A stretch of 64,000 bases of DNA from Myxococcota bacterium (GCA_051747385.1 JBNJGB010000024.1:25797-89796); one strand, 5' to 3'. Counted from the first letter of the stretch, positions 10,409-56,255 are shown. Notes: a model not told the origin generated them from the sequence alone. Program-made: numbers and translations.

Positions 10409-10425
10409 CCGATCGGTCGTTGTCG

Positions 10426-15850: not shown

Positions 15851-17677
<1,827 letters not shown>

Positions 17678-35028: not shown

Positions 35029-35998
35029 GGAGGATCTCCGCCAGGACGCGGTTCGCCTCGGTGTAGGGGTCCGTGTCCCGCGCGATGAGGCGGTCCAGCA
35101 GGGCGTGCTGATCCTCCCGGGGGCCCAGGGCCTCCGCCATCCGCTCCACCAGGTGGTCGCGGACGATGGTCTCCAGCACGTGGGCGGCCCGGTCCCGGAG
35201 GCGGGCCACCTTCGCCGCGTCGTCCGACGGCCGATCCTGGTGGTCGTGCACCGCCTTCAGGAGGTCCGGGATGCCCTCGCCGCGCACCGCCACGGTGGGC
35301 ACGATGGGCGGGCGCCAGTCCCCCTCGTCCTCCGCCAGGCTCTGCAGGGCCCGGATGTCCCGGATGGTGCGGTCGACGCCCTCGCGGTCGGCCTTGTTGA
35401 TGGCGAAGACGTCGGCGATCTCCAGGATGCCGGCCTTGATGGCCTGGATGTCGTCGCCCAGGCCCGGCACGAGCACGACGACCGAGGTGTGGGCCAGCTT
35501 GACCACCTCCACCTCGTCCTGGCCCACGCCGACGGTCTCGAGGAGGACGACGTCGAAGCCCATGGCGTCGAGGATGGACACGACGTCGGCCGTGGAGCGG
35601 CTCAGCCCGCCCAGGTGTCCCCGCGTCGCCAGGCTGCGGATGAAGACCCCGCGATCCGTGGCGTGGTCCGACATGCGGATCCGGTCGCCCAGGATGGCGC
35701 CGCCGGAGAACGGGCTGGACGGGTCCACCGCCACCACGCCCACCCGGAGGTCCTGGTCCCGGTAGTAGCGGATGATCCGGTCCGTCAGGGTGGACTTCCC
35801 GGAGCCCGGGTTGCCCGTGATCCCCACGATGCGCGCCCGCCCCGTGTGGGGATACAGGCGCTTGAGGATCTCGACGGCCACCGGCTGGCGATCATCCACC
35901 AGGCGCATGGCCCGGCCGGCGGCGCGCTCGTCTCCCTCCAGGATGCGCCCGACGAAGGCGTCGAGGGCCTCGGGATCAGCGGTCACAGGTCGTCGCAT
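35015..35998 (-). CDS. meaB: Methylmalonyl-CoA mutase-associated G-protein chaperone MeaB/ArgK
   Basis: P-loop GNPGSGKST, DxxG and NKAD motifs. The true start, MRRPVTADPE at 35998, lies inside track ORF 35015..36085. Confidence 0.85.
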   Translation of the reverse strand: MRRPVTADPEALDAFVGRILEGDERAAGRAMRLVDDRQPVAVEILKRLYPHTGRARIVGITGNPGSGKSTLTDRIIRYYRDQDLRVGVVAVDPSSPFSGGAILGDRIRMSDHATDRGVFIRSLATRGHLGGLSRSTADVVSILDAMGFDVVLLETVGVGQDEVEVVKLAHTSVVVLVPGLGDDIQAIKAGILEIADVFAINKADREGVDRTIRDIRALQSLAEDEGDWRPPIVPTVAVRGEGIPDLLKAVHDHQDRPSDDAAKVARLRDRAAHVLETIVRDHLVERMAEALGPREDQHALLDRLIARDTDPYTEANRVLAEILRGEA

Positions 35999-38069
35999 GG
36001 CCCTGGGGTCCCTCCCACGTCGCGGAGGCGGAGGACTCGGTCTCGCGCCAGCGCGCACCGGCGGCGCGCCACGCCCGAAGCTCACGACGGAGCAGCGCCT
36101 CCCGGAGGCTCTCCGTGTCGGACGTCTCGGTCCGGGCCCAGCCCTCGTCGCCGCGCGCCAGCCAGCGCGAAGGCTCGTCCCCGCCGGGCTCGAGCAGAGC
36201 GCGCTCGCCCTGGACGACGAGCGCCGCCTCCCGGTGGGCCGAGAAGGCCGGGGTGGGCCACGCCGCGGGGACGATGGCCCGGACGTCCACGCCCTGGACG
36301 CCGTCGGGCGGGTCGACGCCGGCGAGACCCCACACCGTCGCGGCGAGGTCCGTCAGATCCACGGCCGAGTCCGACGCGGGCACCGGCGCGCCGACGACCC
36401 ACGCGGGCACGTGGGCGACCTCCGTGTGCATCGCCACGTCGCCAGGGAGGGCGCCGGCCCCCACACCCGCCACCACGACCACGGCGTCGGGCGCCAGGGT
36501 GCGCGCCTGCTTCACGAAGTCCCCGACGGCCGCCATCACCTCGTCGGCCTTGCCCTTCCGGAGCACCTCGAGGAACGCGCGGTCCCGCTGGTCCAGGGTG
36601 CGCCGTCCGGCGCGGACGTCGGACAGCACCTCGCGCGTGGTGGCGGGGTCCCACGGGGGATCGCCGCGCCCGCCCCAGTGCTCCTTCCAGGCCTCGCCCC
36701 GGGGCAGCCACGGCGGCCCGGTGTCCCCCAGGAGGGCGGCCGCGAAGACCTTGCCGTCCCCGGCCTCGCGCAGAGCGTCGACGAGGCTCGTGAGCACCGG
36801 CGCGGCGTGGGGCAGCAGGTCGCCGCCGGAGGCGAGGAGAGAGTCGTCGAAACCGCGCACCGGCGAGGCCTCGCCACCCAGCGGCACCGGGCCGGCGCGC
36901 AGGATGGTGTCCCACCCGGCGTCGCGGAGGCTCTTGGCCAGGGTCGGAATCTCGTCGTTCAGGCGGTCCGAACGCGCCTGCACGCCGTGGCCCGCCGGAT
37001 ATCGGCCGGTCCACAGCGACGCGACGGCGGGCCGCAGGTCCAGCGCGGAGGTCCACGCGCTGGTCAGCAGCGTCGCGTCCGGCAGGTCGTCCTCGCCGAC
37101 GTCCGTCGCACGGAGCCCTCTCACGCCGACGAGGATGATCTTGTCCGCGGTGGTCTTCGCCGGCGGCGTCTCCGACCGGGTGCCGGGGACGGTGAGGGTG
37201 GGGGCCACGAGGCCCGCGGCGCCGCCTCCCTCCCCCTCGACGCCGAGGCGGAGCCACACCGGCGACCGGCGGCCGCCCCGGGAGAGGTCGAGGTTCCACG
37301 GCATCTGCAGGGCGGCCGGCAGGGCGGCCACGCGGTCGACGGCGCCCTCGGCGCTGATACGCTCCACGACCACGCGGAGCTTCGAGGCGTCGCCGCGAAG
37401 CCGGACGCCGGACGTCTCCAGGGCCTGCTCGGGCTGCAAGGGCGCGGGCATGGTCACCTGCACGCCGCGCTCGAGCCAGAGCACGTCGCCGGCGGCCAGC
37501 GGTCCGGCGGGGGCCTCCCCGGGGGGGGCCGCCTCCGTGTCGAACACCACCGCGTGGAGGAGGGCGCGGACGTCGCGCGGCATCCCGGGACCCTCCGGCG
37601 CTGGGCGCGTGACCTTCGAGAAGGTCATCGTCAGGCGGCGCCGCCCGGCGTCGTCCGGCTTTATCGCCAGGCCTGCGCGCTGCCACCCCTCCTCCAGCGG
37701 GTGGGTGCCGAGCTCGCGGTCTCCGAGGGTCACGGTGAGATCCCGCGGGCCGTGGGCCGGGCGGAGGAGCAGGTCCATGCGCCTGGCGCCGGCGGGGACG
37801 ACGACCTGGAGGACGGCGCGGGGGTGGGTCACCGGTCGATACGACCAGCCCTCCCCGTCGCAGCCGGGCTCGCCGAACGCGTAGGTCCCCTCCGGGCCGG
37901 CGGCGGTGAAGAAGCCCGGCCCTGAGGCGTCGACGCGGCCGGTCCCGTATGCCGCCAGCCGGATCAGGTCGGCGGAGTCCAGGCGCCCGGGGAGGGCGGC
38001 CGTCGCCTCCGGGGCGAGCGCCGCGAAAACCAGGAGGGCCAGCGCGTGACGAGCGAGGATCCGGATCAT
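35976..38069 (-). CDS. Secreted alkaline-phosphatase/sulfatase-superfamily protein with a degenerate active site (pseudo-sulfatase), 698 aa
   Basis: Signal peptide MIRILARHALALLVFAALAPEATAA. The central region aligns to the sulfatase N-terminal domain (ILVGVRG..., SLWTGRYPAGHGV, LAKSLRDAGWDT), but the CxPxR formylglycine motif reads LRPAV. The upstream 185 codons of the track ORF cross a repeat element and are not coding. Confidence 0.55.
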   Translation of the reverse strand: MIRILARHALALLVFAALAPEATAALPGRLDSADLIRLAAYGTGRVDASGPGFFTAAGPEGTYAFGEPGCDGEGWSYRPVTHPRAVLQVVVPAGARRMDLLLRPAHGPRDLTVTLGDRELGTHPLEEGWQRAGLAIKPDDAGRRRLTMTFSKVTRPAPEGPGMPRDVRALLHAVVFDTEAAPPGEAPAGPLAAGDVLWLERGVQVTMPAPLQPEQALETSGVRLRGDASKLRVVVERISAEGAVDRVAALPAALQMPWNLDLSRGGRRSPVWLRLGVEGEGGGAAGLVAPTLTVPGTRSETPPAKTTADKIILVGVRGLRATDVGEDDLPDATLLTSAWTSALDLRPAVASLWTGRYPAGHGVQARSDRLNDEIPTLAKSLRDAGWDTILRAGPVPLGGEASPVRGFDDSLLASGGDLLPHAAPVLTSLVDALREAGDGKVFAAALLGDTGPPWLPRGEAWKEHWGGRGDPPWDPATTREVLSDVRAGRRTLDQRDRAFLEVLRKGKADEVMAAVGDFVKQARTLAPDAVVVVAGVGAGALPGDVAMHTEVAHVPAWVVGAPVPASDSAVDLTDLAATVWGLAGVDPPDGVQGVDVRAIVPAAWPTPAFSAHREAALVVQGERALLEPGGDEPSRWLARGDEGWARTETSDTESLREALLRRELRAWRAAGARWRETESSASATWEGPQGHATTCDR

Positions 38070-38174
38070 GCCAACCGTCCGTAGCCGTGGCCGGTTCCGC
38101 CGTTGTCGGGACGCCCATCCTGGGGCGTGGAACGGAGTGCGGTTAGCACGCGGCTTCGCGCCGTGTAAAGGCAC

Positions 38175-38371
38175 CCGCCGGGTTCGGCCAGGGCGGTCGC
38201 ACAGTCGACCGCCCTCCCTTGCCTTTGCCCTTGCCCTTGCCCTTGCCCTTGCCCTTGCCTGCTTTCGAAGGCGTAGAGTCCATCGTTTCCGGGCGGGTGT
38301 CATGCGGTGCCGGGCGTCGGACCGCCGCGCGACCCTCCCTTGTCCGACTTTGCGATTGCCCCGCGGGTTCC
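38175..38371 (+). mobile_element. Family A MITE-like element, copy 2 (core 38190..38361)
   Basis: Same hairpin; seven CCCTTG hexamers (copy 1 has five); the CCATCGTTTCCGGGCGGGTG box; the GCGATTGCCC end. Flanked by direct repeats cccgccgggttc and cgcgggttcc. Confidence 0.5.
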
Positions 38372-38424
38372 CCTGGGCGGCGCGACGTTGACGCCCGGGG
38401 GGCGAGGCGCCAGCATCCACGCTC

Positions 38425-38913
38425 ATGAAGCGATCATCCGTGTTGTTCGTGTGTCTGGGAAACATCTGTCGCTCGCCCCTCGCCGAGGGGGTCTTCCGCG
38501 ACGAGGTCGCACGCCGCGGGGTGGAGGGCCTCGTCCGCGTGGACTCCTGCGGTACCGGGGGCTGGCACGTGGGGGAGGCGCCCGACCCGCGGAGCGTCGA
38601 GGTGGCGCAGCGGCACGGCCTGGACATCAGCCACCAGCGGGCCCGGCAGCTTCGCGGCGAGGACTTCTACGAGTTCGTCTGGATGATCCCCATGGACCGG
38701 TCCAACGAGCGGGTGCTCGCGGCGTCCCGGCCGGACGACCACGACGGCCTCGTCCGGCGGTACACGACCTTCGTGCCGGGCCGCGCCCCGGAGGACGTCC
38801 CGGACCCGTACTACGGCGGCCCCCGGGGCTTCGACGACGTGTTCGACCTCATCCGGCGCGGGGCAGGCCCCCTGCTGGACGAGATCCTGGCGGACCTCGA
38901 GGCGCGCCGATGA
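38425..38913 (+). CDS. Low-molecular-weight protein-tyrosine phosphatase
   Basis: P-loop CLGNICRSP at the N-terminus and a DPYY loop; 162 aa. Confidence 0.9.
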   Translation: MKRSSVLFVCLGNICRSPLAEGVFRDEVARRGVEGLVRVDSCGTGGWHVGEAPDPRSVEVAQRHGLDISHQRARQLRGEDFYEFVWMIPMDRSNERVLAASRPDDHDGLVRRYTTFVPGRAPEDVPDPYYGGPRGFDDVFDLIRRGAGPLLDEILADLEARR

Positions 38914-39867: not shown

Positions 39868-40206
39868 ATGGTCGCCATCTGGTTCGATCCCTCGACCGCC
39901 GCCACCGATCGCCTCACCGCCAGCGTCACCGTCGGCTCCGCCGCCGAGACGACGCGGACCCTCGACGTGGGCGTGCGCTCCATCGGGCGCCGAGGCGTCG
40001 TGCTGAAGACCGCCGGCGACCTGGGCGGCGCCCGCCACGCGTGGATGGATCTCGCGCTGCCCGGCGGACGCAGCATCCGGCCCCTCGTCGAGATCGGCCG
40101 GTCGGACCAGGGGCACACCCCCGTGCGCTTCAAGCACCTCTTCCCGCGGGATCGCGAGGCCCTCGAGGCCTTCCACCTCTCCCGGGCGACGACCTCGGGC
40201 TACTGA
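39868..40206 (+). CDS. Small hypothetical protein, possibly PilZ-like
   Basis: 112 aa. A C-terminal VRFKHLFPRDREALEAF segment resembles the PilZ-domain C-terminus. Weak call. Confidence 0.3.
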   Translation: MVAIWFDPSTAATDRLTASVTVGSAAETTRTLDVGVRSIGRRGVVLKTAGDLGGARHAWMDLALPGGRSIRPLVEIGRSDQGHTPVRFKHLFPRDREALEAFHLSRATTSGY

Positions 40207-41173: not shown

Positions 41174-41746
41174 ATGCACACGCCCGTACGTCGATGGGTA
41201 CGCCTCTCCCCCTCCGCCCGGTGGGGAGCGGCGCTCGCGGCCGTGGTCGCCCTCGCGTTCGGCCTCGTCGCGTGCAAGGAGGAGCTGGATCCCGAGGTCG
41301 TCGGCCGCGGCCTGCCGGACACGGGCAGCACGGGCACCCCGACGCCCGAGATGGCGCAGCGGTGCAAGCTCGACGAGAAGGTGGACGCCCCCGAGGAGGG
41401 CACCCCCGAGCGCGTGGTGGCTCGAGTGCTCGGGGCTGCGAAGGCCGCCGGAGACGAGGACGACGAGGCAGAGTTCCAGCGCTTCTTCGGCCAGTTCGCC
41501 GAGGGACAGGACGAGAGCTGGGCCCGGTCGCAGTACTGGAAGGCCGCCCGCAAGCACGCGGACCTGTTCGTCTACGGCGGGGGCGGCGACGAGCCGGTCA
41601 CCTACGTGATCTGCCGCCGCCAGGAAAAGGACGGCGGGGTGACGCTCTACCTCGGCTCCAAGGACACGCAGAAGAAGTCCCACGTGCCCATCACCCTGGA
41701 GAAGCAGGAGGACGGGGCGTGGAAGGTGACGAAGTTCAGCCCCTGA
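41174..41746 (+). CDS. Hypothetical lipoprotein, 190 aa
   Basis: Strong GGAGGA Shine-Dalgarno 7 nt upstream of the ATG. Lipobox AAVVALAFGLVAC. It forms the C-terminal part of spurious track ORF 40265..41746. Confidence 0.7.
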   Translation: MHTPVRRWVRLSPSARWGAALAAVVALAFGLVACKEELDPEVVGRGLPDTGSTGTPTPEMAQRCKLDEKVDAPEEGTPERVVARVLGAAKAAGDEDDEAEFQRFFGQFAEGQDESWARSQYWKAARKHADLFVYGGGGDEPVTYVICRRQEKDGGVTLYLGSKDTQKKSHVPITLEKQEDGAWKVTKFSP

Positions 41747-41803
41747 GCGGCCCGCGCGGGCGCGCGGCGCGACGCGTGGTGTGACACGAGAGAGGCGAGG
41801 CGC

Positions 41804-43540
41804 ATGAAGACGTGGATGCCAGCCGCAGGCGCGGCGCTGCTCATGGTCCTGGTCGCCGGGTGTGACACCGGTCGGGAGACGGCCCCGAGCACCATGGAGG
41901 TGCACGCCCTGAGCGGCGGGTCGTGCGCCGAGGGCGCGTCCATCGACCCGCTCCAGGACCTCGAGGAGGTGGAGGTGAGCCTCAGCCGCTTCGACCCGGA
42001 GGCGGAGGAGGGCGACGGGTTCGAGGTCATCCGCTCCGTCAGCCGGAGCGTCTCGGACATGAGCTTCACCCTGTCGGGCGTCCCGGAGACCACCGGGGTG
42101 GGGCATCGGATCGTGCTCTCCGGCGAGGGGCAGCAGGCCCGGTGGTACGCCGCGGACATGGACGTCACGGTCCGACGGAACACGGACAACCCCGTGGACC
42201 TGCTCCTGACGCGATTCGGAGGCTTCTCGTGCGTCCCGACGGACACGAGCCTGGTCAACGCGGTCTTCCCGGCCGCCGCGGAGCTGGGGGATGGCCGGCT
42301 GTTCATCAGCGGCGGATTCACGCAGCTCCTGAGCGATCGCCAGGGTGGAACCTACCTGGGCGCCCCGAGCAGCCAGGCGTTCATCTTCGACCCGACCACG
42401 GGTCTGGTGGACGAGGTCATCGACATGGGCGAAGGAGAGGGCCGCGCCGGCCACGCCGTCGAGTTCATCCCGTCGCCCACCGGCGAGGACCGGGGCAAGG
42501 TCCTCATCCTCGGGGGCATGACGCGGCTCGGCGTGGACTCGGGCGCCGGCTTCCCGTTCACCTTCGACAAGGAGGACGGGCGGCGGGACTTCCTGCTGTA
42601 CGACCTGTCCACGTCGTCGTTCGTGGAGGGCACCGACGACGCCATGCAGGTGAAGCGTGGCTTCCCGCGCACGCACCTCATGGCGGACGGCACCGTCGTC
42701 GTCACCGGCGGTGGCCAGTGGCCCCAGGAGGCGTCGACCGACTACCAGGAGGTCGAGGTCTTCGACCCGCAGCAGCAGGCGGGGGCGTGGTTCGTTCCCG
42801 GCACGGCGGGCTTCATCAGCGACTGGCCCCGGACCGGACACAGCCTCAGCTTCCTGGGCAACACGCCCGAGCAGGGCCTGACGCAGCTCCTCGTCTGGGG
42901 CGGTACGACGCCGCCGGGGCAGCGGAAGGGCACCGACTCGGTGGCCGAGATCATGACCCAGTCCTCGCAGCAGGTGGAGGGGATCGACGGCTCGTTCTCG
43001 CCCGTCACCGTCCAGGTCCAGAACCCGGATGACGGCGTGCCGTTCACCTTCTTCCACGAGATGACCCCGCTCGGCGAGCAGGACTTCCTCCTGACGGGCG
43101 GCGTGCGGGCCCAGTGCGCAGGCCAGGGTCAGGACTGCACGCTCCGGGCGCCGGCGGCGGACGAGGCCTGGCACGTCCACATCCAGACCGGCGGCGACGA
43201 CCCGGTGGCTCAGGTCCGCAAGGTGCCGGGCATGGGCGCCGGTCGCGTCTTCCACTCGGCGCACCTCAGCGCCCCGGGGGGCGTCGCGGTGGTCGGTGGC
43301 CTGGCGGGCACGAATGCGGTCCAGACCGACAAGATCATGCTGTTCGACGAGGCCGACTCCTCCTGGGCGGCCGATCCGGCCGGCGGCGACCGGTTCGAGG
43401 GGCGTGGCGCGCATCTCGGGGTCACGCTGGGCTCGCGGGCCGCGCTGCTCGTCGGCGGCGAGACCAACCTCACCGACCTGGACGGCAACACCGGCGCCTT
43501 CGTCGAGGTGTTCGCGCCGTCCAATCTCCACACTCCCTAG
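41804..43540 (+). CDS. Kelch-repeat (galactose-oxidase-like beta-propeller) lipoprotein, 578 aa
   Basis: Lipobox LLMVLVAGC. Repeated Kelch signatures GRLFISGG, KVLILGG, TVVVTGG, LLVWGG, FLLTGG, VAVVGG, ALLVGG. Confidence 0.75.
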   Translation: MKTWMPAAGAALLMVLVAGCDTGRETAPSTMEVHALSGGSCAEGASIDPLQDLEEVEVSLSRFDPEAEEGDGFEVIRSVSRSVSDMSFTLSGVPETTGVGHRIVLSGEGQQARWYAADMDVTVRRNTDNPVDLLLTRFGGFSCVPTDTSLVNAVFPAAAELGDGRLFISGGFTQLLSDRQGGTYLGAPSSQAFIFDPTTGLVDEVIDMGEGEGRAGHAVEFIPSPTGEDRGKVLILGGMTRLGVDSGAGFPFTFDKEDGRRDFLLYDLSTSSFVEGTDDAMQVKRGFPRTHLMADGTVVVTGGGQWPQEASTDYQEVEVFDPQQQAGAWFVPGTAGFISDWPRTGHSLSFLGNTPEQGLTQLLVWGGTTPPGQRKGTDSVAEIMTQSSQQVEGIDGSFSPVTVQVQNPDDGVPFTFFHEMTPLGEQDFLLTGGVRAQCAGQGQDCTLRAPAADEAWHVHIQTGGDDPVAQVRKVPGMGAGRVFHSAHLSAPGGVAVVGGLAGTNAVQTDKIMLFDEADSSWAADPAGGDRFEGRGAHLGVTLGSRAALLVGGETNLTDLDGNTGAFVEVFAPSNLHTP

Positions 43541-43603
43541 GAGCGGTGCCGGGATCCCGGCCGCCGCGTCCCACGACTCGTTTCCAGGCGAGGAGACCCT
43601 CCC

Positions 43604-44995
43604 ATGCTCCACCCGCGGGGGAAGACGTACCGCACCCTGGCCGTCCTGACGGCCGTGGGCGTGTTCAACCTCGAGATGGTCGCGCTGATGCACGGCCGGC
43701 TCACGCTGCCGACGGCCCGGGCGCAGGCCCAGCCGGAGGCCCCGGCCCGAGCGGCCGCGGAGGAGCGCCGCGTCGCCCTCATCGTGTTCCCGAGGCGGAG
43801 CGCCGACGAGGGGGACGCCCAGGTCCTTCAGACGCTGATGCGCCAGGAGGTCGAGCGGTTGAAGGACGTGAGCGTCGTCACCGGCTCGCCCGATCCCGCC
43901 GAGGACGCGCAGTCCGTGGCGGCCGACCTCGTGGAGGCGGGCTTCCGGGCGCTGAACGTGCGGGATCACGTGGAGGCCGAGGCGAGGCTCTCGGAGGCCT
44001 ACGAGAAGCTCATCCGTCACACGGGTCCGCTGGACCGTCGCCTGATGGCGCGGGCCCTCAAGGGGCTCGGCGTGGCCCGGGTGATGGCCGGCCAGATGCG
44101 CGCCGGCAAGGACATGATGCGCGCGTCCCTGAACCTGTGGCCCGAGCAGATCCCTCCAGAGTACGGCTACACGCTCGACGTGCTGAACGCCTTCAAGGAC
44201 GTCCAGCGCCAGCGGACCGAGCAGGCCAGCGGCTCCGTCGACGTGGTCACCGAGCCTGCGGGGGCCGAGGTGCGCATCGACGGCGAGGTCCGGGGATACT
44301 CTCCGGTGAGCGTGCCCGACCTGGCCCCGGGGATGCACTGGGTTCAGGCCCAGCTCGACGGGTACGTCCGCCAGGGCTCCCTCGTGGAGGTGCCCTCCGG
44401 CGAGGCGGAGCAGGTGCGGTACTCGCTCCAGGCCCGCCAGGATCACGACGCCTACAGCGACGTCATGGGCGACGTGCAGCGGCGCTTCGGTTCCCGGCGC
44501 GTGGTCGGGCGGGCCAACCCGAAGCTGATCGACATGCTCCGAGCGGACGACGTCCTCCTGGTGCAGGTGGACCCGCGGGGCAACGGCTATCGCCTGACGG
44601 CGTGGCACGGTGACGCCGAGGGCGTCGAGCAGGCGAAGAAGACGATCCAGCGTGACGCCGACTTCCTGTCGAACATCCAGTCCTTCCTCACCGCCACCCT
44701 GGGCGCCGAGCTGGGCGCCGAGGAGGCCGCCCTGCGGCTGGACGCGCCGCCCAAGAGCAGCGTGCTGGCCACGGGCGAGGAGGAGGAGGACCTCTACATC
44801 GACCCGGACGACCCCATCCTCAAGAGCCCCGAGGAGGAGGAGGAGGAGAGCGTCACGAGCAAGTGGTGGTTCTGGGCCATCGTGGGCGGGGTCGCCGCGG
44901 GCGCCGTTGCTGGCGGCGTGGTCCTGTTCTCCGGCACCGACGCTGGTTCCGGCCCCACCGGCGACATCACCGTCGACCTCCACGGGCTCCAGTAG
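43604..44995 (+). CDS. PEGA-domain protein with a C-terminal TM anchor
   Basis: Signal-like N-terminus; PEGA domain (VDVVTEPAGAEVRIDGEVRGYSPVSVPDLAPGMHWVQAQLDGY); acidic stretch; TM helix WWFWAIVGGVAAGAVAGGVVLF. Confidence 0.65.
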   Translation: MLHPRGKTYRTLAVLTAVGVFNLEMVALMHGRLTLPTARAQAQPEAPARAAAEERRVALIVFPRRSADEGDAQVLQTLMRQEVERLKDVSVVTGSPDPAEDAQSVAADLVEAGFRALNVRDHVEAEARLSEAYEKLIRHTGPLDRRLMARALKGLGVARVMAGQMRAGKDMMRASLNLWPEQIPPEYGYTLDVLNAFKDVQRQRTEQASGSVDVVTEPAGAEVRIDGEVRGYSPVSVPDLAPGMHWVQAQLDGYVRQGSLVEVPSGEAEQVRYSLQARQDHDAYSDVMGDVQRRFGSRRVVGRANPKLIDMLRADDVLLVQVDPRGNGYRLTAWHGDAEGVEQAKKTIQRDADFLSNIQSFLTATLGAELGAEEAALRLDAPPKSSVLATGEEEEDLYIDPDDPILKSPEEEEEESVTSKWWFWAIVGGVAAGAVAGGVVLFSGTDAGSGPTGDITVDLHGLQ

Positions 44996-45041
44996 AACCG
45001 CCGTCCCCGGCGCCCCGAGCCGGCAAGCTGCAGTAGGATCG

Positions 45042-45285
45042 CCGTCCCCGGCTCACAGTTCGTCAGATGTCGCGAGACGAAGGGCTCGCGCAAAGACGCG
45101 AAGCCGCAAAGAAGGACGGCATGCTTCGGCTCGGTGTGCTCGCTCTCGGCCTGCCGGTGACGCGGCGGTCTCGGACGAACCGGTGTGCAACCGGTTCGCT
45201 GGCCTTGGGGTCCTGGCGGCTTGGCGCGCGATTCTCTTCGAGGCCCCGGCATTTCGAGTTGTGTAGGCCTGTGAGCCGTCCCCGG
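45042..45285 (+). mobile_element. Family B MITE-like element, copy 2 (core 45052..45275) with a perfect 10-bp target-site duplication
   Basis: Terminal inverted repeat ctcacag ... ctgtgag. The core is flanked immediately on both sides by CCGTCCCCGG (45042..45051 and 45276..45285). It lies in a convergent intergenic region. Confidence 0.5.
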
Positions 45286-45288
45286 CGG

Positions 45289-48200
45289 TCAGTAGATCAG
45301 CTCGAAGCCGGCCGCCGCCGTCGACTCCGTGTGGGCCTCGCCGTCCGTGCCCTCCGGGAGGGACTGGTTGGCCAGGTAGGCGCCGGTGGCGCTGGTGATG
45401 CGGACCACGACGCCCACGCTCCGCGTCTCTCCGGCGGCCGCGTCGTAGAGCAGGGACAGCGGGATCGCCGCCTCGACGGCCTCGTCCCCGGCGTAGACGG
45501 CGCCGTCGATGAGCCAGGGCAGGTCGGCGGGGAGCGACAGGCCGCGCCAGCCGGCTCCCACGGCCGCGGGGTCGTCCACGGCGGGCACGTAGCTGTCCAT
45601 GTCGAGGGTCGCGAAGCCCACCTCCGCGCCGTACCCGGCCTGGGTCACGCGCAGGACGCTCGCGACGGCGTCGTCGACTGCGTGGTCGCCGTCCGTGAGC
45701 GCTGACAGGTCCGTGACGCCGCTGCCGGCGCCGAGGTCGGTGTCCACGTACGCGACGAGGGCGTTGCCGTCGTGGGCCTTCCCCTCCACGGCGAGGTACA
45801 TGAGCTCGCCGTCGCTCGCCGCGTGGAGAGCCGAGAGCGTGTTCCCCGTGCCCCAGTCGCTGGCGATCGTGTTCGTGGCGAGGAGCGTGGCGCCGGTCCA
45901 CTCGTCCAGGGTGCCGTCCATCGTGGGGCGATAGCCCAGGCGGGTGGTCGCGGTGCCCTCGTCGCAGGCGACGACCACCTCCGCCTCGCCGGGCGCGTGG
46001 GGCGGCGCCGTGAACTGCAGGGGACCGGGAGCGTCCCCCCAGGTGGTGGTCGCCGCGATCCCGTCGACGGTGACGCCGCACGAGCCGTCGAGCCCGGCGC
46101 CCGCGACGGCGACGGTCGTTCCTCCGCCGTGGGTGACCGAGCGTGGCTCCAGCGCGGTGACCCCGACAGCTCCCTCCAGGATCTCCACCGTGGAGAGGTC
46201 GGCGGGAGAGAAGCCGTCCACGGCGCCGGTGCGGTCCACGTAGAGCCAGGAAGAGCCGCCGGTGACCGAGAAGCGCATCGTCGCGGCCCAAGTGCCCGGG
46301 GGCGGCTCCACCGCGCCGGTCCAGACGTCGTTGTGGCCCTCCTCGTGGCTGTAGGCGGCGTCGGTCCAGGTCCAGCCCTCGTCAGAGCGGGGATCCGAGC
46401 CCGCGGGGCCGTAGCCGGCCTGGGCCGTGATCCCGAAGCCGGCGCCGTCCCCCTCCGTCACGCCTGGTTCATAGACCTGCGCGGAGAGCACGGGGCCCGG
46501 CTCTCCCTCGGAGGCGGTGAGCTCCTCGGCGACGTCCAGGCGTCCCCAGTCGGGGAGATCGGGCTCGTACGTGAAGGCATCCGGCGCGACGACGCTCTGA
46601 CCGTCGGGATTGTCCACCGCGACGTCGACGGTGCCGATGGGGGCCGGGGGCGTGACCGCGGAGATCGATCCGCTCCCGTCGGCCACCTCCACGTCGGAGG
46701 CGCTGAGCGAACCGAAGCGCACGGCGGCCCCCGCGGCGAAGTTGGCCCCTGTGACGGTCACGGTCGTTCCCCCACCGGTGGGGCCCGAGGCGGGCGTGAC
46801 CTCGTCGATGCTCGGAGCGTTCGCCACCTCCACGAAGGCGTAGCCGCCCGGATAGGTGGCGGAGCCTCCGTCCGGCGCGGTGATCGTCACGTCCACGGTC
46901 CCCGCCGCGTGCGCGGGGGTGATCACTTCGGCGGAGGCGGTCTCGACGGTCTGGACCGTGGCCTCCTCTCCTCCGAAGCGCACGGTGACGCCCTCGACGA
47001 AGCCGCTCCCGGACAGGGTCACCGGGGTCCCGCCGGTCGCGCTCCCGTGATCGGGCGCGATCAGCAACAGCTCGATGGGCGCCGTCTCCGGGACGCAGGC
47101 GCCGTCCTGGCAGACCTCGCCGTCGCCGGTGCAGGGCGCCTGGGGGCCGCACTCCGGTACACAGACACCGTCCTGGCAGACCTCGCCCGCGTCGCACGGG
47201 TCGTCCTCGTCGCACTCGGGCCCGGTGTCGGGCACACACGTACCGTCCTCGCAGATCCCACCGCCGGGGCACGGGTCGTCCTCGTCGCACTCGGGCCCCG
47301 TGTCGGGCACACACGTACCGTCCTCGCAGATCTCACCGCCGGGGCACGGGTTGTCCGCGGCGCACTCGGGCCCCGTGTCGACCACGCAGGCGCCACCCCG
47401 GCAGACCTCGTCCCGTCCCGTGCAGGGCGTGTCGGGGCCGCACTCGGGGGCAGGGTCGTCGGGACAGACGACCACCGCGGTGTTCATCTCGACGCCCTTG
47501 CTGTCCATGGACTGGACCACGTCGTGCGGCTGCCAGCCGCCCGCGCACTCGGCCTCCGCGGACACGCCCCGGGGCGTCGCGTCCCCGTCGACCTTGTACT
47601 CCTGGGCCACGTCCGGGTCCGCGTCCCCCTTGGCGAACACGAAGACGAACTGCGCCTCCTGCCCGGCCTGGAGCAGCCCGTCGTGCGGCCCGAGGTACAG
47701 GGAGTGCTGGTAGGTGAGCACGCCGTCCCCCGCCTGAGCGTCGCCGCGCGCCCCGTCGTCCAGGAGCTGGATCGGCGTCCACGAGTTCATGGTGCCCTTG
47801 ATGAACACACGGTGGCTCTCGAGGGTGACGGCGCCGACCCAGTCCTCGTGCAGGCCCTCCAGGTCGAGGAAGACCTCGAGGTCCCGATCCCCGTGGGCGG
47901 GGACGGTCATCCCCGGGACGTCGACGCGACCCGTGGTGCCGGCCGGTACCTCGAGCTGCCCGTTGGAGCCGCGCCAGATCCACCGCAGATCGGCGTTGAG
48001 GAGGCCGTACGAGAGCAGCCGATCCTGCTCGGCCCGGTAGCAGGCCACCACGCTCCAGACGTGGTCCCCGGCCACCTCGCCCTCGGGCTCGTGTCCGCCC
48101 GCGCTGACGGGCCCGTCGTCGAACAGCGGCGGATAGGGGCCCTCCTCCGGGAGCCAGCTCGAGGCGAACTCCAGCGTGTTCGTCGCCTCGTCCCAGGAGA

Positions 48201-48474
48201 AGGAGCCGGTCCAGATGAGCTCGCCCTCGCCGTAGGTCCGGTTCGCGGTGTCGTCCACGGCGAACGCGAGCGCGGCGTGGTCGTCGGGGCAGGGGTTCGT
48301 GGCGGGGTTGGCGGTCGCGTCCTCCGTGCTGCCGCCATCCATGGCGTCCCCGGAGGTTGCGTCGGGGCTCGTGTCGGCGGGGAGGGGCCCGGTGTCTTCG
48401 CCGTCGGGCCCGTCACATCCGGCGGCGATGGCCAGGGCGATCGTCGCCGCGAGAGTCCAGGTGCGCACCGTCAT
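45289..48474 (-). CDS. Giant secreted lipoprotein with myxo-type Cys-rich tandem repeats and three IPT/TIG-like domains (adhesin-like), 1061 aa
   Basis: Lipobox TIALAIAAGC. Five tandem units of DTGPEC..DxPC.GGEIC.DGxCVP (nucleotide-level repeats 47100..47420). IPT-like GGTPVTLSGSGF, GGTTVTVTGANF and GGGTTVAVAGAGL. Confidence 0.8.
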   Translation of the reverse strand: MTVRTWTLAATIALAIAAGCDGPDGEDTGPLPADTSPDATSGDAMDGGSTEDATANPATNPCPDDHAALAFAVDDTANRTYGEGELIWTGSFSWDEATNTLEFASSWLPEEGPYPPLFDDGPVSAGGHEPEGEVAGDHVWSVVACYRAEQDRLLSYGLLNADLRWIWRGSNGQLEVPAGTTGRVDVPGMTVPAHGDRDLEVFLDLEGLHEDWVGAVTLESHRVFIKGTMNSWTPIQLLDDGARGDAQAGDGVLTYQHSLYLGPHDGLLQAGQEAQFVFVFAKGDADPDVAQEYKVDGDATPRGVSAEAECAGGWQPHDVVQSMDSKGVEMNTAVVVCPDDPAPECGPDTPCTGRDEVCRGGACVVDTGPECAADNPCPGGEICEDGTCVPDTGPECDEDDPCPGGGICEDGTCVPDTGPECDEDDPCDAGEVCQDGVCVPECGPQAPCTGDGEVCQDGACVPETAPIELLLIAPDHGSATGGTPVTLSGSGFVEGVTVRFGGEEATVQTVETASAEVITPAHAAGTVDVTITAPDGGSATYPGGYAFVEVANAPSIDEVTPASGPTGGGTTVTVTGANFAAGAAVRFGSLSASDVEVADGSGSISAVTPPAPIGTVDVAVDNPDGQSVVAPDAFTYEPDLPDWGRLDVAEELTASEGEPGPVLSAQVYEPGVTEGDGAGFGITAQAGYGPAGSDPRSDEGWTWTDAAYSHEEGHNDVWTGAVEPPPGTWAATMRFSVTGGSSWLYVDRTGAVDGFSPADLSTVEILEGAVGVTALEPRSVTHGGGTTVAVAGAGLDGSCGVTVDGIAATTTWGDAPGPLQFTAPPHAPGEAEVVVACDEGTATTRLGYRPTMDGTLDEWTGATLLATNTIASDWGTGNTLSALHAASDGELMYLAVEGKAHDGNALVAYVDTDLGAGSGVTDLSALTDGDHAVDDAVASVLRVTQAGYGAEVGFATLDMDSYVPAVDDPAAVGAGWRGLSLPADLPWLIDGAVYAGDEAVEAAIPLSLLYDAAAGETRSVGVVVRITSATGAYLANQSLPEGTDGEAHTESTAAAGFELIY

Positions 48475-48756: not shown

Positions 48757-50328
48757 ATGAACGCGAAGGCGAGCGGCGTGGGTCTGGTGGGCATCGAAGG
48801 CGTCCTGGTCGAGATCCAGGTCGGCTACCAGGAGGGTCTCCCGGGGCTCGACATCACGGGACTCCCGACGGCGACCATCCGGGAGGCGCGGCACAGGGTG
48901 AAGTCCGCCGTGCGCGCGACAGGCTACGAGTGGCCCGACGTGCGGCTGCTGGCGAACTTCGCGCCCGCGGATCTTCCCAAGGCCGGGACGGCCTACGACC
49001 TGCCGCTCGCGGTGGCGGCCCTGATCTTCGGCGAGCAGGTGCCCCAGGCAGCTGCCAGGGACGCCGTGTTCTTCGGAGAGCTCGCGCTGGACGGCTCCGT
49101 CCGGGCGGTGCCCGGGGCCATCAACGCGGCCCTGGCTGCGCGCGAGGCCGGCCGCCGACGTCTGTTCACCGCCGAGGCGGTGGCCGGCGAGGCCGCCGCG
49201 GTCCCGGACGTCGAGGTCATCCCCGTGGCCAGCCTCGTGGACCTCGTGGAGGGGTTGCACGGGAAGCGTTCACTCCAGCCCGCCCGGGCGACCGTGCTGG
49301 ACGGCCTCCCGCCCGCGGCGGTGGATCTGCGGAACGTGCGGGGACAGCACCGGGCGCGGCGCGCGATCGAGGTGGCCGCGGCCGGCGGCCACAACCTGCT
49401 CCTCATCGGCCCGCCGGGCTGCGGGAAGACCCTCCTGGCGCGGGCGCTGCCGGGGATCCTGCCGGGCATGGACCTGGAGGAGAGCCTCGAGGCTACGCGG
49501 ATCCACAGCGTGCGCGGCTTCACGAGCCGGTCCAAGGGTCTCCTGCGGCGGCGTCCCTTCCGGGCGCCGCACGCGACCGCCTCGTACGCAGCGCTGGTGG
49601 GGGGCGGGAACCCGCCCAGGCCCGGGGAGGTGAGCCTGGCGCACCGGGGCGTGCTCTTCCTGGACGAGACGCCGGAGTTCCTGCGCTCGGCCCTCGAGTC
49701 GCTGCGCGCGCCGCTGGAGGATCGCCATGTCACGATCTCGCGGTCCGGGCGGCAGGTGTCCTTCCCGGCGTCGTTCGCGCTGGTGTGCGCCATGAACCCG
49801 TGCCCGTGCGGGCACAAGGATGATCCGGCGCGACCGTGCCGGTGCACGCCGCGGCAGATCGCGACGTACCGGCGGCGGATCAGCGGGCCCCTGCTGGATC
49901 GGATCGACATCCAGGTGGAGCTGAGCCCGGTGCGAAGCGAGGCCCTGGCCTCCACGGAGCCGGGGGAGGGGTCGGACGCCGTGCGATCGCGGGTCGTCTC
50001 CGCGCGGCAACGGCAGCGCGTCCGGAACCGGGCGGGCGGGCGGCTCGTGACGAACGCCGAGCTCGACCTGGACGGCCTGGAGACCCACGCGGCGCTCGGG
50101 GAGGAGGAGCGGCTGCACCTGGCCCGCGCGGCGCGCGTGCTGGGGCTCACGGCCCGGTCGTGGCACCGCGTCATCCGCGTGGCGCGGACGATCGCGGACC
50201 TGGACGGCCGCGACGAGATCGGGCGGACGGACCTGTCCGAGGCCCTCACCTACCGCGTCCTGGATCGCGGCAGGCCGGGCCGGAGGGGGACGGCGAAGGC
50301 CGGCCGCAGCGGCGGATTCGCGGGCTGA
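48757..50328 (+). CDS. comM: YifB/ComM family Mg-chelatase-like AAA+ ATPase
   Basis: N-terminal Lon-like domain, Walker A GPPGCGKT, Walker B LFLDE, C-terminal Mg-chelatase domain; 523 aa. Confidence 0.85.
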
Positions 50329-50419
50329 CGAGGACGGTTCGAAGCCTGCGACCGATCGCCGAGGGACGGCGGGGGGCGTGGGCCGGAGCGGCGCGCCGAG
50401 GGCGCGCGGGAGGAGAGCG

Positions 50420-51466
50420 ATGAGCAAGGGCTCGGACAAGGGCATGAAGGGACTGTTGGGGCGCGTCGAGAAGCGCTTCGGGAAGGGAGCTGTGATGCAC
50501 ATGGACGACGCGAGGGACAGCGGGATGCGGGTGTTCTCCACGGGGTCGCTGGCCCTCGACGTGGCCCTCGGGGCCGGAGGCCTGCCGTACGGCCGCGTGG
50601 TCGAGGTGTACGGCCCGGAGTCGTCCGGCAAGACGACCCTGGCGCTCCACGCGGTCGTGGAGGTCCAGAAGGCGGGGGGCCGCGCGGCCTTCATCGACGC
50701 GGAGCACGCGCTGGACATGCGCTACGCGGAGGACCTGGGCGTGGACTCGTCGCGGCTGCTGGTGAGCCAGCCGGACTGCGGCGAGCAGGCCCTGGAGATC
50801 GCGGAGATGGTCGCCAGGAGCGACGAGATCGACCTCGTCGTCGTCGACTCGGTGGCGGCGCTGACCCCGCGCGCCGAGATCGAGGGCGAGATGGGCGATC
50901 AGCACGTCGGGCTGCAGGCGCGGATGATGGGCCAGGCGCTCCGCAAGCTCAACGCCGCGGCGAACCGCAACCAGACGGCCGTCCTGTTCATCAACCAGCT
51001 CCGGCAGAAGATCGGCGTGACCTTCGGAAGCTCGGAGACGACCACGGGAGGCAACGCGCTGAAGTTCTACGCCTCCGTCCGCCTGGACATCCGGCGCATC
51101 GGGGCGGTGAAGGACGGCGACGGGAACGCCATCGGCAACCGCACGAAGGTGAAGATCGCCAAGAACAAGCTCGCGCCGCCCTTCCGCATCTGCGAGTTCG
51201 AGATCATCTACGGCCGCGGGATCTGCCGCGCCGGCGAGGTCCTGGACATGGGCATCGAGGCCGGCTTCGTGACCAAGTCCGGCTCCTGGTACGCCCTGGG
51301 CGACGAGCGCCTGGGGCAGGGCAGGGAGCGGGCGCGCGCGGCCCTGCGGGCGGAGCCCGAGCGTCTGGACGCGCTCGTGGCGCAGCTCCGCGAGGGGCTG
51401 ATCGGCGAGGAGGCGGCGGGCTCCGCCGGCTCGGAGGACCAGGCGTCGCTGTCGGACGCGGCCTGA
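50420..51466 (+). CDS. recA: Recombinase RecA
   Basis: [10 protein letters not shown]-loop and highly conserved RecA core. GGAGGAG Shine-Dalgarno upstream of the ATG at 50420; the track ORF begins 14 codons earlier. Confidence 0.95.
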
Positions 51467-53523: not shown

Positions 53524-54318
53524 GTGGAAGGCGAGATGATCATCCAACCGCTTCCGCTGGAGCGGGTCGGCCCGGGCGGCGATCTGCGCGAGGCCTTCCT
53601 GGCCGTCCAGGAGCCATGGCAGGACCGCGGGCTGGTCCGGTGGATCGACCTCGTGCGGCCCGACGGCCGGTGGCCGGTCGAGGTGGTCGGCGCGTGGCCC
53701 GAGGGGCGGCCGGAGGCCCTGTCCGGGACCATCGTCTGCGTCTGGGCGCCGGAGGTCCTGTCCCGCTTCGACGACCTGCTGGAAGGATCGGGCCCCGATG
53801 GAGTGCGCGGCGACTCCCGGCCGACGGACGGCGCGTGGCACCTCATCGCCGTGACCACGGTGCCGGAGACCCGGGGGACCGGCCTGGGCCGCCGCCTTGC
53901 CCGGGGCGCCCTGCGCGTGCTCGGCGATCGGGACCCCACCACCACGGTCTGCACCTTGTCTCCCGCCGTGGGGCTGGCGGATCTGGCGGAGCAGGTGCCC
54001 GGCGAGAGCTTCGAGGAGCGCGTGCGGGCCGTGCTGTGGCGGGTCTCCGACGACGAGGGCCGCCCCGTCCTCCGCATCCAGCGGTTCCACTTAGGCAACG
54101 GCGCGACCCTGGGGGCCGTGCTCTTCGACAGCCGCCGCGACGACGCGTCGAGCGGGTGCGTGACCCTGCGGTTCGACTACTCGCTCGACCCGGCTGAGCA
54201 GCGGGCCAACCTGGGGTCCTTCCGCCGATGGGTCGAGGACCGCCGGCGCCGGCTTCGTGCCGGGGAGGGACGCTCCCTGAGTCGCCGCGAGGGTGCTCTG
54301 CTGCTGGCCGACACCTGA
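53524..54318 (+). CDS. Malonyl-CoA decarboxylase (MCD)-like protein, short form
   Basis: C-terminal RFHLGNGATLGAVLFDSRRDDASSGCVTLRFDY matches the MCD catalytic-domain signature (RFHLxNGA...S.G.mvNYrY). At 264 aa it is shorter than characterised MCDs. Confidence 0.55.
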   Translation: MEGEMIIQPLPLERVGPGGDLREAFLAVQEPWQDRGLVRWIDLVRPDGRWPVEVVGAWPEGRPEALSGTIVCVWAPEVLSRFDDLLEGSGPDGVRGDSRPTDGAWHLIAVTTVPETRGTGLGRRLARGALRVLGDRDPTTTVCTLSPAVGLADLAEQVPGESFEERVRAVLWRVSDDEGRPVLRIQRFHLGNGATLGAVLFDSRRDDASSGCVTLRFDYSLDPAEQRANLGSFRRWVEDRRRRLRAGEGRSLSRREGALLLADT

Positions 54319-54428
54319 GCCTCGCAGGGCTGTGGCCGGGGCGCCCCGTTTTGAGGCCGCCGTGGCCCGTGATAGTGTCTCGTTTCCGAGCCCCGACCAC
54401 TCGGGCAGCGGGGCTCTGGGAGGTGGGC

Positions 54429-56255
54429 GTGGCGTCAGGGACCGATAGCGGGGCGGGCGATGCCCTGATCGGCAGGACGCTGGCCGGGCGATATCGGGTC
54501 GATCGGCTCCTGGGGCGGGGCGGCATGGGCTCCGTGTATGCGGCAGAGCACATGGCGATCGAGCGGCCCGTTGCCCTGAAGGTGCTGGCGCCCCACCTCT
54601 CGGAGGATCCGGCGCAGGTGGAGCGCTTCAACCAGGAGGCGCGCGCCTCCAGTCGGCTGGAGCACCCCAACACCATCCGGGTCTTCGACTACGGACAGTC
54701 CGAGGACGGCCAGCTCTTCCTCGCCATGGAGCTTCTCGAGGGCGAGGAGCTGTCGCGGGTCATTCGTCGGGAGGGGGCCCTGGAGCCGGCCCGGGCCGTG
54801 CGCATCGCCCGGCAGATGGGCAAGTCCATCGGCGAGGCCCACCAGGCGGGTGTCATCCACCGGGACCTGAAGCCGGACAACGTCTTCCTGAGCCAGATCT
54901 ACGGCGAGCGCGACTTCGTGAAGGTCCTGGACTTCGGGATCGCGAAGTTCACGGACGGGTCGCCCGCCCAGCAGTCCCTCACCCAGACCGGGTTCATCGC
55001 GGGCACGCCATTGTACATCGCCCCCGAGCACGCCCTGGGTCAGCAGGTCACGGCTCGGACGGATCTCTACTCCCTCGGCGTGATGCTCTACGAGATGCTC
55101 ACGGGTGTGCTCCCGTTCCGGGCGGACACCCCGCTGGGCATCGTGATGAAGCACATCCACGAGGCGCCGCCGCCCCTCCGGGAGAAGAAGCCGGACCTGG
55201 AGATCCCGCGGGATCTCGAGGCCCTGGTCCTCCGGCTGCTGTCCAAGAAGCCCAAGGATCGCCCGGCCAGCGCGAAGGAGGTCGGGGACGCGCTCGACGC
55301 CGTCGATTTCAGCGGCTCCTCCGCCCCCCCGGCCAGGCGGTTCAAGGACTTCGGGGTGGGCCAGGAGGAGGAGACCGTCCTGTCCGGGGCTGCGATGGAT
55401 CCGCACGAGGCGCAGCCGTCGCACGCGCCCGAGGCCGAGGTGCACGAGCCGACGCCGGCCCGGATGCCGGCCGTGGCGCGCCGCTCCCACCCGGGGACCC
55501 TCGCGTCCCGACCGAGCACCAGCGGCGCCGGGGCTCCGGCCGAGACGGGGGCCATCGGCGTGGGGCAGGGGCAGCCTGCGACGACCGGGTCCGGGGGAGA
55601 CACGAGTCCGTGGGCGGTGGCGGGCGCCGTCCTGGCGGCCATGGTCGTGATCCTCGGCGGCGGCGTGACCCTCTGGTTCACGGCGGGGCCGGGCGCAGCC
55701 GAGGAGGAGCCCCCGGCGGCTTCGGCCACCGCGTCGCAGGAGACGACAGGCGCGGAGGGCACCGAGGCGGCCGGCGCCGAGACGAACGAAGAGCCCGTGC
55801 CGATCCGGGACGACCGATCGCGGACGGCGGCCGCCGTGCCGCCCGCGGACGGGGAGGCTGGCGCCGAGGACGAGGCCGGCGCGGAGGTGCACGACACCGT
55901 TTCGGCCGAAGGCGAGGGCGCGGAGGAGGAGGCTCCCGAGCCGGAGCCCGCCCGGGTCGAGATCCGGACGCAGCCGGTCGGGGCGGAGATCGTCGACGGC
56001 GAGGAGAGCCTCGGGCAGGCGCCGGTGGAGGTCTCCGTGGAGGCGGGGGGTGAGCGCTCCCTCACGGCGCGCCTGGACGGCCACCGGGACGCTGAGATCA
56101 CGGTGCCGTCCGACGCCGAGGGGCCGGTCGAGGTGACGCTGGAGAAGGTCCGGCCCGAGCCGACCGCGCGCCCGAAGAAGGGGCCCACGAAGCCACGCGC
56201 CAGCAGGAAGGGCGGCGGCTCGGAGGAGCCCGTCTGGAAGGACTGGGACGAGTAG
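54429..56255 (+). CDS. Ser/Thr protein kinase with a TM segment and a C-terminal PEGA domain
   Basis: GRGGMGSVY...ALKVL, HRDLKPDN, DFGIAK and APE motifs; TM helix WAVAGAVLAAMVVILGGGVTLWF; C-terminal PEGA (VEIRTQPVGAEIVDGE...). GTG start with a GGAGG Shine-Dalgarno; the upstream track extension overlaps the previous gene. Confidence 0.8.
   Translation: MASGTDSGAGDALIGRTLAGRYRVDRLLGRGGMGSVYAAEHMAIERPVALKVLAPHLSEDPAQVERFNQEARASSRLEHPNTIRVFDYGQSEDGQLFLAMELLEGEELSRVIRREGALEPARAVRIARQMGKSIGEAHQAGVIHRDLKPDNVFLSQIYGERDFVKVLDFGIAKFTDGSPAQQSLTQTGFIAGTPLYIAPEHALGQQVTARTDLYSLGVMLYEMLTGVLPFRADTPLGIVMKHIHEAPPPLREKKPDLEIPRDLEALVLRLLSKKPKDRPASAKEVGDALDAVDFSGSSAPPARRFKDFGVGQEEETVLSGAAMDPHEAQPSHAPEAEVHEPTPARMPAVARRSHPGTLASRPSTSGAGAPAETGAIGVGQGQPATTGSGGDTSPWAVAGAVLAAMVVILGGGVTLWFTAGPGAAEEEPPAASATASQETTGAEGTEAAGAETNEEPVPIRDDRSRTAAAVPPADGEAGAEDEAGAEVHDTVSAEGEGAEEEAPEPEPARVEIRTQPVGAEIVDGEESLGQAPVEVSVEAGGERSLTARLDGHRDAEITVPSDAEGPVEVTLEKVRPEPTARPKKGPTKPRASRKGGGSEEPVWKDWDE

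Follow-up and report, generated by a model that had tools for sequence, protein, structure and literature searches.

A candidate glycan-binding lipoprotein and a Kelch-PEGA operon as convergent neighbors in an uncultured Myxococcota genome

Do neighboring genes for exported proteins make up one functional island? The question is raised by positions 41174..48474 of a 64,000-nucleotide stretch of DNA (the window) from an uncultured Myxococcota bacterium, the genome of which was assembled from a metagenome (a metagenome-assembled genome, MAG). A preliminary description had read this segment as an island of five genes, in which two lipoproteins, a Kelch lipoprotein, a PEGA membrane protein and a giant adhesin-like lipoprotein resembled surface or developmental matrix machinery. 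Our analysis identified four genes, designated A, B, C and D. They form two independent, vertically inherited units, A-B-C and D, which are convergent neighbors only in this lineage, and we lean toward the reading that D encodes an envelope-anchored glycan-binding lipoprotein with an extensible stalk.

Two convergent units of exported-protein genes

The window is 72% G+C, which makes open reading frames (ORFs) uninformative, and coding frames were called by third-position GC content (GC3). This analysis gave one coding frame per stretch and four genes, with A, B and C on the plus strand and D on the minus strand (Table 1). An exact-sequence look-up of the annotated source genome showed that their products are identical to the consecutive NCBI entries MGM0577335-338. 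A fifth gene was sought in 41174..48474 and none was found by GC3 frames, nor does NCBI list more than four proteins there. The loss comes at the start of the run, where only one small lipoprotein (A), and not two, precedes the Kelch gene. The exported character of the products was borne out by signal peptides and lipoboxes, the latter being LVAC at C34 of A, VAGC at C20 of B and AAGC at C20 of D; these were called by pattern only, as [LVI][ASTVI][GAS]C after a signal peptide whose n-region is positively charged and whose h-region is hydrophobic.

The surroundings of the two units in other genomes were compared for 85 fetched D loci (82 distinct; neighborhoods of +/-10 kb) and for 16 loci of B (within 8 kb). 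The D family occurs at 105 places in one-genome-per-species data, in records that are nearly all titled Myxococcota/Myxococcales or 'Deltaproteobacteria', with a few evident mislabels, and all but one of which are labeled as MAGs. BLAST and phmmer revealed no homolog of A, B or C within 10 kb of D at any of the 85 loci, and no D homolog was present within 8 kb of a B ortholog at the 16 loci. At these 16 loci, C was found downstream of B in 13 cases and A upstream of B in 10. The A-B-C trio lies within a conserved housekeeping block in at least nine related contigs, none with D nearby. The recurrent order in these relatives is a low-molecular-weight protein tyrosine phosphatase (LMW-PTP) gene, fructosamine kinase, (glutaredoxin), a gene referred to here as orf112, a metallo-beta-lactamase (MBL)-fold gene on the opposite strand, A, B and C, at 33-55% identity, and the window has matching LMW-PTP, fructosamine kinase, orf112 and MBL-fold genes upstream of A-B-C. 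D, on the other side, is found beside ComM-RecA in the window and in its closest relatives. Finally, in the related genome GCA_041687695.1, D is located on contig 19 and A-B-C on contig 6.

D and C converge, which makes D a transcription unit of its own. Since both blocks are conserved apart elsewhere and are convergent here, the adjacency of C and D is, as judged from these comparisons, a lineage-specific juxtaposition of two conserved blocks. The proposal that the Kelch lipoprotein and the adhesin belong to one machine does not agree with these results, as D and A-B-C are never near each other in other loci, and nothing found here ties A-D to motility or development. A more general lesson for annotation is that adjacent exported-protein genes in a high-GC genome are no evidence of a functional island.

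A horizontally acquired genomic island was also considered and rejected. GC content is flat at 0.72-0.73 and GC3 at 0.93-0.94 across all four genes, there is no mobility gene, the nearest tRNAs are 31 kb off, and both units lie in syntenic blocks that are conserved chromosomal contexts; the term island is not supported.

Directly beside D, ComM (Mg-chelatase-like) and RecA are encoded at 48757..51466 (+). D, ComM and RecA (and SSB) adjoin in the D-family loci L001/L006, and D and ComM adjoin in L027.

Architecture and possible function of the D lipoprotein

The modules of D are, in order, a lipobox, an acidic linker, a region resembling the carbohydrate-binding modules (CBM) CBM20 and CBM48, five tandem four-cysteine units, two TIG domains, an inserted domain, another TIG domain and a CBM9/CBM74-like domain. 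Full-length members of the family share 37-55% identity and are confined to uncultured Myxococcota genomes. The TIG signal (PF01833) was spread over three stretches and reached 108.9 bits (cutoff 20.9), and sequence searches matched TIG 1 and 2 to the TIG domains of plexin and COE in PDB. Three IPT/TIG domains do follow the repeats, as described before, but the third is set apart by the inserted domain of 134 residues. This domain has the conserved pattern QVYEPGVT...GYGP.GSDP...W.W...NNDV...RFS and matched no Pfam or NCBIfam family in searches at E<=10 and E<=1. D contains 26 cysteines besides that of the lipobox, an even number with four per unit, which is consistent with an oxidizing, extracytoplasmic compartment.

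The most conserved part of D is aa 62-342, in which mean column identity is 60% vs 42% for the whole protein, as would fit a conserved ligand, and in which the family alignment showed five invariant aromatic residues (W107, W165, W167, W232 and Y255). This region is predicted to form a set of beta-sandwiches that resemble the starch- and glycogen-binding modules CBM20 and CBM48. Both fold searches with the N-terminal region were dominated by starch- and glycogen-binding modules, and the structure models of the D modules were confident (predicted local distance difference test, pLDDT, of 92.5 and 95.8). The polysaccharide ligand of D would most plausibly be an alpha-glucan such as glycogen or starch; the fold does not reveal ligand specificity. 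If D and its relatives do bind alpha-glucans at the surface, an N-terminal module of ~280 aa that is at present in no sequence family would join the starch-binding fold class.

In the mechanism that we propose, an N-terminal acyl anchor would fix D to the membrane, the two carbohydrate-binding-like ends, as modeled, would bind polysaccharide, and the disulfide-bonded cysteine units together with the TIG domains would provide a rigid spacer that sets the reach of the binding modules. D probably resides in the outer membrane, by analogy with Myxococcus xanthus, in which Lys at position +2 marks inner-membrane lipoproteins (PMC3222651); the +2 residue of D is Asp, not Lys, which makes the outer membrane more likely. 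We regard D as an uncharacterised, Myxococcota-specific, multi-CBM-like lipoprotein akin to modular glycan-binding surface proteins, the interest of which is modest and for the specialist.

Neighboring genes were counted over the 82 non-duplicate D-family loci. In 32 of these, the next gene directly downstream of D on the same strand encodes a lipoprotein of ~1200 aa that combines a glycoside hydrolase family 57 domain (GH57; E=1.8e-42) with CBM_20 (E=1.9e-6) and an Ig-like domain. Another 32 loci, with no overlap with the first 32, have, instead of the GH57 lipoprotein, a family of ~900 aa that we refer to as p954, and these include the five closest relatives of the window's D (L002, L006, L007, L027 and L030), which are flanked by p954 and two further families, p505 and p630, and not by GH57. 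Invariant features of the p954 lipoprotein are a GHG...GAC (His/Cys) pair and many cysteines, and two members gave weak CHAT matches; no Pfam match was found, and profile searches of Pfam and PDB gave only weak CHAT and Ig-like hints. From its sequence, p954 may be an undescribed clan-CD-like peptidase. The 505-aa lipoprotein p505, present in 23 loci, passed the choice_anch_X model with 31.9 bits and is similar by BLAST to the CBM20 end of the GH57 protein. These GH57 and CBM20-like neighbors are the genomic context that favors an alpha-glucan. The 630-aa protein p630, present in 14 loci, has a signal peptide and a C-terminal ...EVLW, and its sequence suggests an outer-membrane barrel.

Examples of these genes are the GH57+CBM20 lipoprotein at 13362..17000 of L004 (also in L008-L019, L021-L025, L028 and others), p954 at 13169..16033 of L001 (and in 31 other loci), and p505 and p630 at 16173..19576 of L001.

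Several results weigh against D as a surface protein that binds glycans, and alpha-glucans in particular. Neither aa 62-342 of D nor 17 homologs matched Pfam CBM_20 (PF00686) or CBM48 at E<=1, the family profile of this region matched nothing in PDB, and CBM9_1 (PF06452) was matched by only one of 17 homologs (8e-5) and not by the D of the window. The C-terminal family profile reached CBM9 (1i82) weakly (E=0.042). Taken together, sequence searches of the N-terminal, inserted and C-terminal regions against Pfam, NCBIfam and PDB gave only weak CBM9 and choice_anch_X signals. D shares the predicted fold of CBM20/CBM48 and CBM9/CBM74, but the D of the window itself reaches no corresponding sequence model. 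In addition, the GH57 lipoprotein, p954, p505 and p630 families are all absent from the 64-kb window, and the closest relatives of D adjoin p954, a different partner, so that it is the more remote half of the D family that supplies the alpha-glucan context. Surface exposure of D is assumed, and the lipoprotein sorting rule of M. xanthus may not transfer to this lineage. Finally, short-read MAG assembly may report too few or too many 75-nt repeats when these are 95% identical, and the count of five units in D rests on the assembly.

Among known systems, the surface glycan-binding lipoproteins SusE and SusF of Bacteroides reportedly combine a lipid anchor, an Ig-like spacer and tandem starch-binding beta-sandwiches. 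D likewise has an N-terminal lipid anchor, an Ig-like spacer and tandem beta-sandwich modules, and a lipoprotein with a glycoside hydrolase domain and a putative barrel of the outer membrane are encoded near its relatives. Unlike SusE/SusF, to which no homology was detected, D has no SusC/SusD pair, and the D of the window is without such partners in 64 kb. Tentatively, and against the balance of probability, we entertain the idea that the D family is part of an undescribed, Sus-like outer-membrane polysaccharide-harvesting system specific to uncultured Myxococcota. Such a system would consist of the putative barrel p630, the CBM20-like p505, D, and either the amylase-like GH57+CBM20 lipoprotein or the Cys/His peptidase-like p954, and it would capture glycogen or starch, e.g. 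from lysed prey; a rearrangement directly downstream of D would have split the window's D from its partners. Myxococcota are usually seen as living on prey proteins and lipids. If it is true that the D family binds alpha-glucans at the surface, the phylum would for the first time show signs of an apparatus dedicated to glycan capture.

A second comparison is with Sas6 of Ruminococcus bromii (PDB 7uwu), a starch adherence protein with the order CBM26-BIg-CBM74-BIg. No sequence similarity between Sas6 and D was detectable. Sas6 is a dockerin protein from a Gram-positive bacterium, and D comes from a diderm and is lipidated at its N-terminus. Compared to Sas6, D adds a Cys-rich stalk and the extra inserted domain, and its ligand is a putative one.

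The competing account that fares best, although we consider it unlikely, is that D binds a polymer other than an alpha-glucan (the cell's own exopolysaccharide, peptidoglycan or a prey wall glycan) as a recruiting or scaffold partner of p954 and p630. The p954-p505-p630 flanks of the five closest relatives agree with it, as do the invariant His-Gly...Ala-Cys pair of p954 with its weak CHAT matches and the range of several glycans bound by CBM9-fold domains. However, p505 of the same clusters carries the CBM20-like choice_anch_X motif, the N-terminal fold searches favored starch and glycogen modules, and p954 is itself only a putative peptidase by sequence.

Less probable still, and distinctly so, is a role like that of TraA, in which D, with a lectin-like head on a Cys-rich stalk, would be a polymorphic receptor or adhesin for cell-cell recognition and would serve to recognize kin or adhere to other cells, and not to capture nutrient polysaccharide. 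D and TraA of M. xanthus are both Myxococcota envelope proteins with tandem Cys-rich units, and those of TraA were proposed to form a rigid stalk that presents its glycan-binding PA14 domain (PMC3325183). The repeat region of D has a weak match to the TraA stalk model TIGR04201 (Myxo_Cys_RPT; E=0.06), but its score of 13.5 bits is below the cutoff of 25. Unlike TraA, which has a PA14 head, a TIGR04201 stalk and MYXO-CTERM, D lacks PA14 and MYXO-CTERM, is anchored by an N-terminal lipobox and carries its stalk in mid-protein. Moreover, its putative binding regions are conserved and not polymorphic, aa 62-342 being the most conserved part of the protein, and GH57/CBM20 genes adjoin 32 of the 82 D-family loci.

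A single functional island of all four genes, with the Kelch lipoprotein, the PEGA protein and the giant adhesin as parts of one surface, matrix or developmental apparatus, is very improbable. In its favor are the adjacency of the genes, the export of all their products and an unrelated D-family locus (L004/L009) where genes for a Kelch protein and for a kinase with PEGA lie upstream. These proteins have no significant similarity to B or C, however, and the combination occurs in one distinct locus only; the separation of the two units at all D and B loci, their location on different contigs in GCA_041687695.1 and the convergence of D and C likewise speak against a common function.

The cysteine-unit array of D

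The preliminary description had counted five near-identical Cys units of about 26 residues. Five four-Cys units are present, but only the middle three, units 2-4, which are 25 aa (75 nt) each, are near-identical. Units 1 and 5 are of another subtype (C-x5-C-x6-C-x4-C) with one extra residue; they share 75% nucleotide identity with each other and 41-48%, ungapped, with units 2-4. The tandem repeat noticed at the DNA level was recovered by Tandem Repeats Finder (TRF) at 47167..47380, with a period of 75, 2.9 copies, 90% matches and a score of 344. Units 2 and 3 are 95% identical in nucleotide sequence, including exact matches over 33 and 30 nt. All four of the differences between them are nonsynonymous. 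Unit 4 is ~80% identical to unit 2 and to unit 3.

In profile searches, DUF7107 (PF23416; cutoff 24.6) gave 35.4 bits for whole D and 48 bits, in three stretches, for the repeat region; it is a domain of unknown function and brings no functional information. The assignment to TIGR02232, the Myxococcus 'myxo disulfide' repeat, that had been suggested was not upheld, as no match was obtained with full-length D at E<=0.01 or with the repeat region alone at E<=10.

It had also been proposed that the repeats can recombine and change in number. Unit 3 was found to be a mosaic, in which nt 7-36 match unit 4 and nt 37-75 match unit 2 with one difference (vs 13 to unit 4). This recent unit 4/unit 2 hybrid is the expected product of unequal crossover between these two units in a shorter array, and recombination has therefore altered copy number in this lineage. 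The D homologs carry 0-6 units at the equivalent position, and in 10 of 32 proteins the most similar pair of units lies within the same protein, indicating independent recent duplications. In ten clusters at 90% identity (34 sequences), on the other hand, unit copy number never differs, and length differences inside these clusters are due to start sites, truncation or the loss of 13 aa within a TIG domain. The proposal thus holds for longer evolutionary distances and not within close relatives: as far as sequence comparison goes, the array is evolutionarily plastic but slow, and no rapid switch. Spacer length would evolve by in-frame unequal recombination between the 75-nt units. The array illustrates clearly how unequal crossover has lengthened a spacer, with the hybrid unit still visible in its sequence.

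A contingency locus with high-frequency copy-number change within populations is the least probable of all the alternatives considered here, since, despite the in-frame period, the close identity of units 2 and 3 with its exact runs and the past recombination recorded in the hybrid unit, copy number is constant within the ten clusters and only three units are similar.

Table 1. Features of the segment 41174..48474, with positions in the window
Feature	Position	Strand	Basis or remark
Gene A, lipoprotein, 190 aa	41174..41746	+	GC3 frame; identical to MGM0577335.1; first gene of the A-B-C operon
Gene B, Kelch lipoprotein, 578 aa	41804..43540	+	Identical to MGM0577336.1
Gene C, PEGA protein, 463 aa	43604..44995	+	Identical to MGM0577337.1, 'PEGA domain-containing protein'
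PEGA domain of C, aa 210-277	44231..44434	+	Pfam PF08308, 35.4 bits vs cutoff 20.8
C-terminal transmembrane (TM) helix of C (WWFWAIVGGVAAGAVAGGVVLF)	44864..44929	+	Invariant or nearly invariant columns in family alignment
Convergent C-D intergenic region, 293 bp, block junction	44996..45288	.	Sequence between C and D
Gene D, multi-domain lipoprotein, 1061 aa (IPT/TIG family protein)	45289..48474	-	GC3 frame; identical to MGM0577338.1
D C-terminal domain, aa 849-1061, CBM9/CBM74-like fold	45292..45930	-	Predicted fold
D TIG 3, aa 772-848	45931..46161	-	Third TIG stretch; position from family alignment
D inserted domain, aa 638-771 (134 aa)	46162..46563	-	Conserved in D family alignment
D TIG 1 and 2, aa 468-553 and 554-637	46564..47073	-	Pfam PF01833
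D five tandem 4-Cys units, aa 340-461	47092..47457	-	Regular expression
Units 2-4, three in-frame 75-nt repeats	47155..47379	-	TRF
D CBM20/CBM48-like region, aa 62-342	47449..48291	-	Predicted fold
D signal peptide and lipobox AAGC, Cys20	48415..48474	-	Read from sequence; C20 invariant in 26 homologs

The A-B-C operon, the C-D spacer and flanking genes

A-B-C is an operon that is kept as a trio, with all genes on the same strand and intergenic gaps of 57 and 63 bp. The three families are small and confined to Myxococcota metagenome sequences; gene A has no Pfam or NCBIfam match, and its family comprises 55 matches in 1.84 billion representatives.

The identification of B as a Kelch lipoprotein was confirmed. 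Against Pfam, B scored 27.1 bits for Kelch_6 (cutoff 25.3) and 23.8 for Kelch_3 (cutoff 22), a small margin for a single sequence, and the B family profile matched galactose-oxidase-type Kelch domains in PDB (E=3.9e-10). The lipobox Cys is nearly invariant in the family, and a region of ~130 aa at the N-terminus precedes the Kelch beta-propeller. Judging from seven invariant GG doublets (aa 170, 237, 303, 366, 432, 498 and 551), the propeller is probably seven-bladed. A function of B as a copper radical oxidase (galactose or glyoxal oxidase) was rejected: neither PF09118 nor PF07250 gave a match, and the C-terminal domain specific to these oxidases was not seen (copper ligands were not individually aligned). 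The invariant His residues of B sit in a generic R-x-x-H blade motif.

For C, the description as a PEGA protein with a TM helix also agreed with our results. Its signal peptide at the N-terminus, in which an AxA is conserved, is followed by a periplasmic region, the PEGA domain and a C-terminal anchor. In the family alignment (n=27, all 438-478 aa), the WWFW of the anchor helix (W421, W422, F423 and W424) is invariant, and a conserved GSGPxG tail follows the helix. The two lipoproteins A and B may form a complex with the membrane-anchored PEGA protein C in the envelope or periplasm.

The spacer between C and D contains three exact copies of GCCGTCCCCGGC, a 12-mer that is present 17 times in the window with at most one mismatch vs 5.7 expected. 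It also contains a 26-nt direct repeat, the copies of which are 88% identical and 41 nt apart, the first including the stop codon of C. The spacer gave no significant RNA structure (z = -0.56 and 0.11) and no consensus promoter or terminator. As the window has C-B-A where relatives have p954-p505-p630, a rearrangement breakpoint is placed just downstream of D, and the spacer repeats may have been left behind when the rearrangement brought the blocks together, or may be a small repeated element.

Upstream of A-B-C, orf112 (39868..40206, +) encodes 112 aa without family match, between the fructosamine kinase and MBL-fold genes; it is present in most related contigs at 38-51% identity, and the glutaredoxin gene directly ahead of it in relatives was not seen in the window. 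Farther upstream, 32308..36352 (-) encodes a membrane protein of 982 aa that weakly matches the PMT_2 glycosyltransferase model, followed by a MeaB-type GTPase. In related contigs, too, this PMT_2-like/MeaB pair is found ahead of the A-B-C block. An ORF of up to 883 aa (35976..38627, -) with ~77% G+C and no Pfam domain is located between the MeaB and LMW-PTP genes; its start codon is uncertain and its frame overlaps the MeaB ORF, and in its place related contigs have a gene of 696-715 aa without match. The only RNA genes detected in the window with Rfam are tRNA-Glu(ttc) and tRNA-Lys(ttt) at 10333..10498 (-).

Ser/Thr kinases encoded near D homologs at 12 loci were judged to be there by chance and to be uninformative; such kinases are abundant in Myxococcota genomes. 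The window also encodes, at 54198..56255 (+) and 9 kb from C, a Ser/Thr kinase that carries PEGA at its C-terminus (Pkinase, E=2.3e-48; PEGA, E=5.5e-7) and is the second PEGA protein there.

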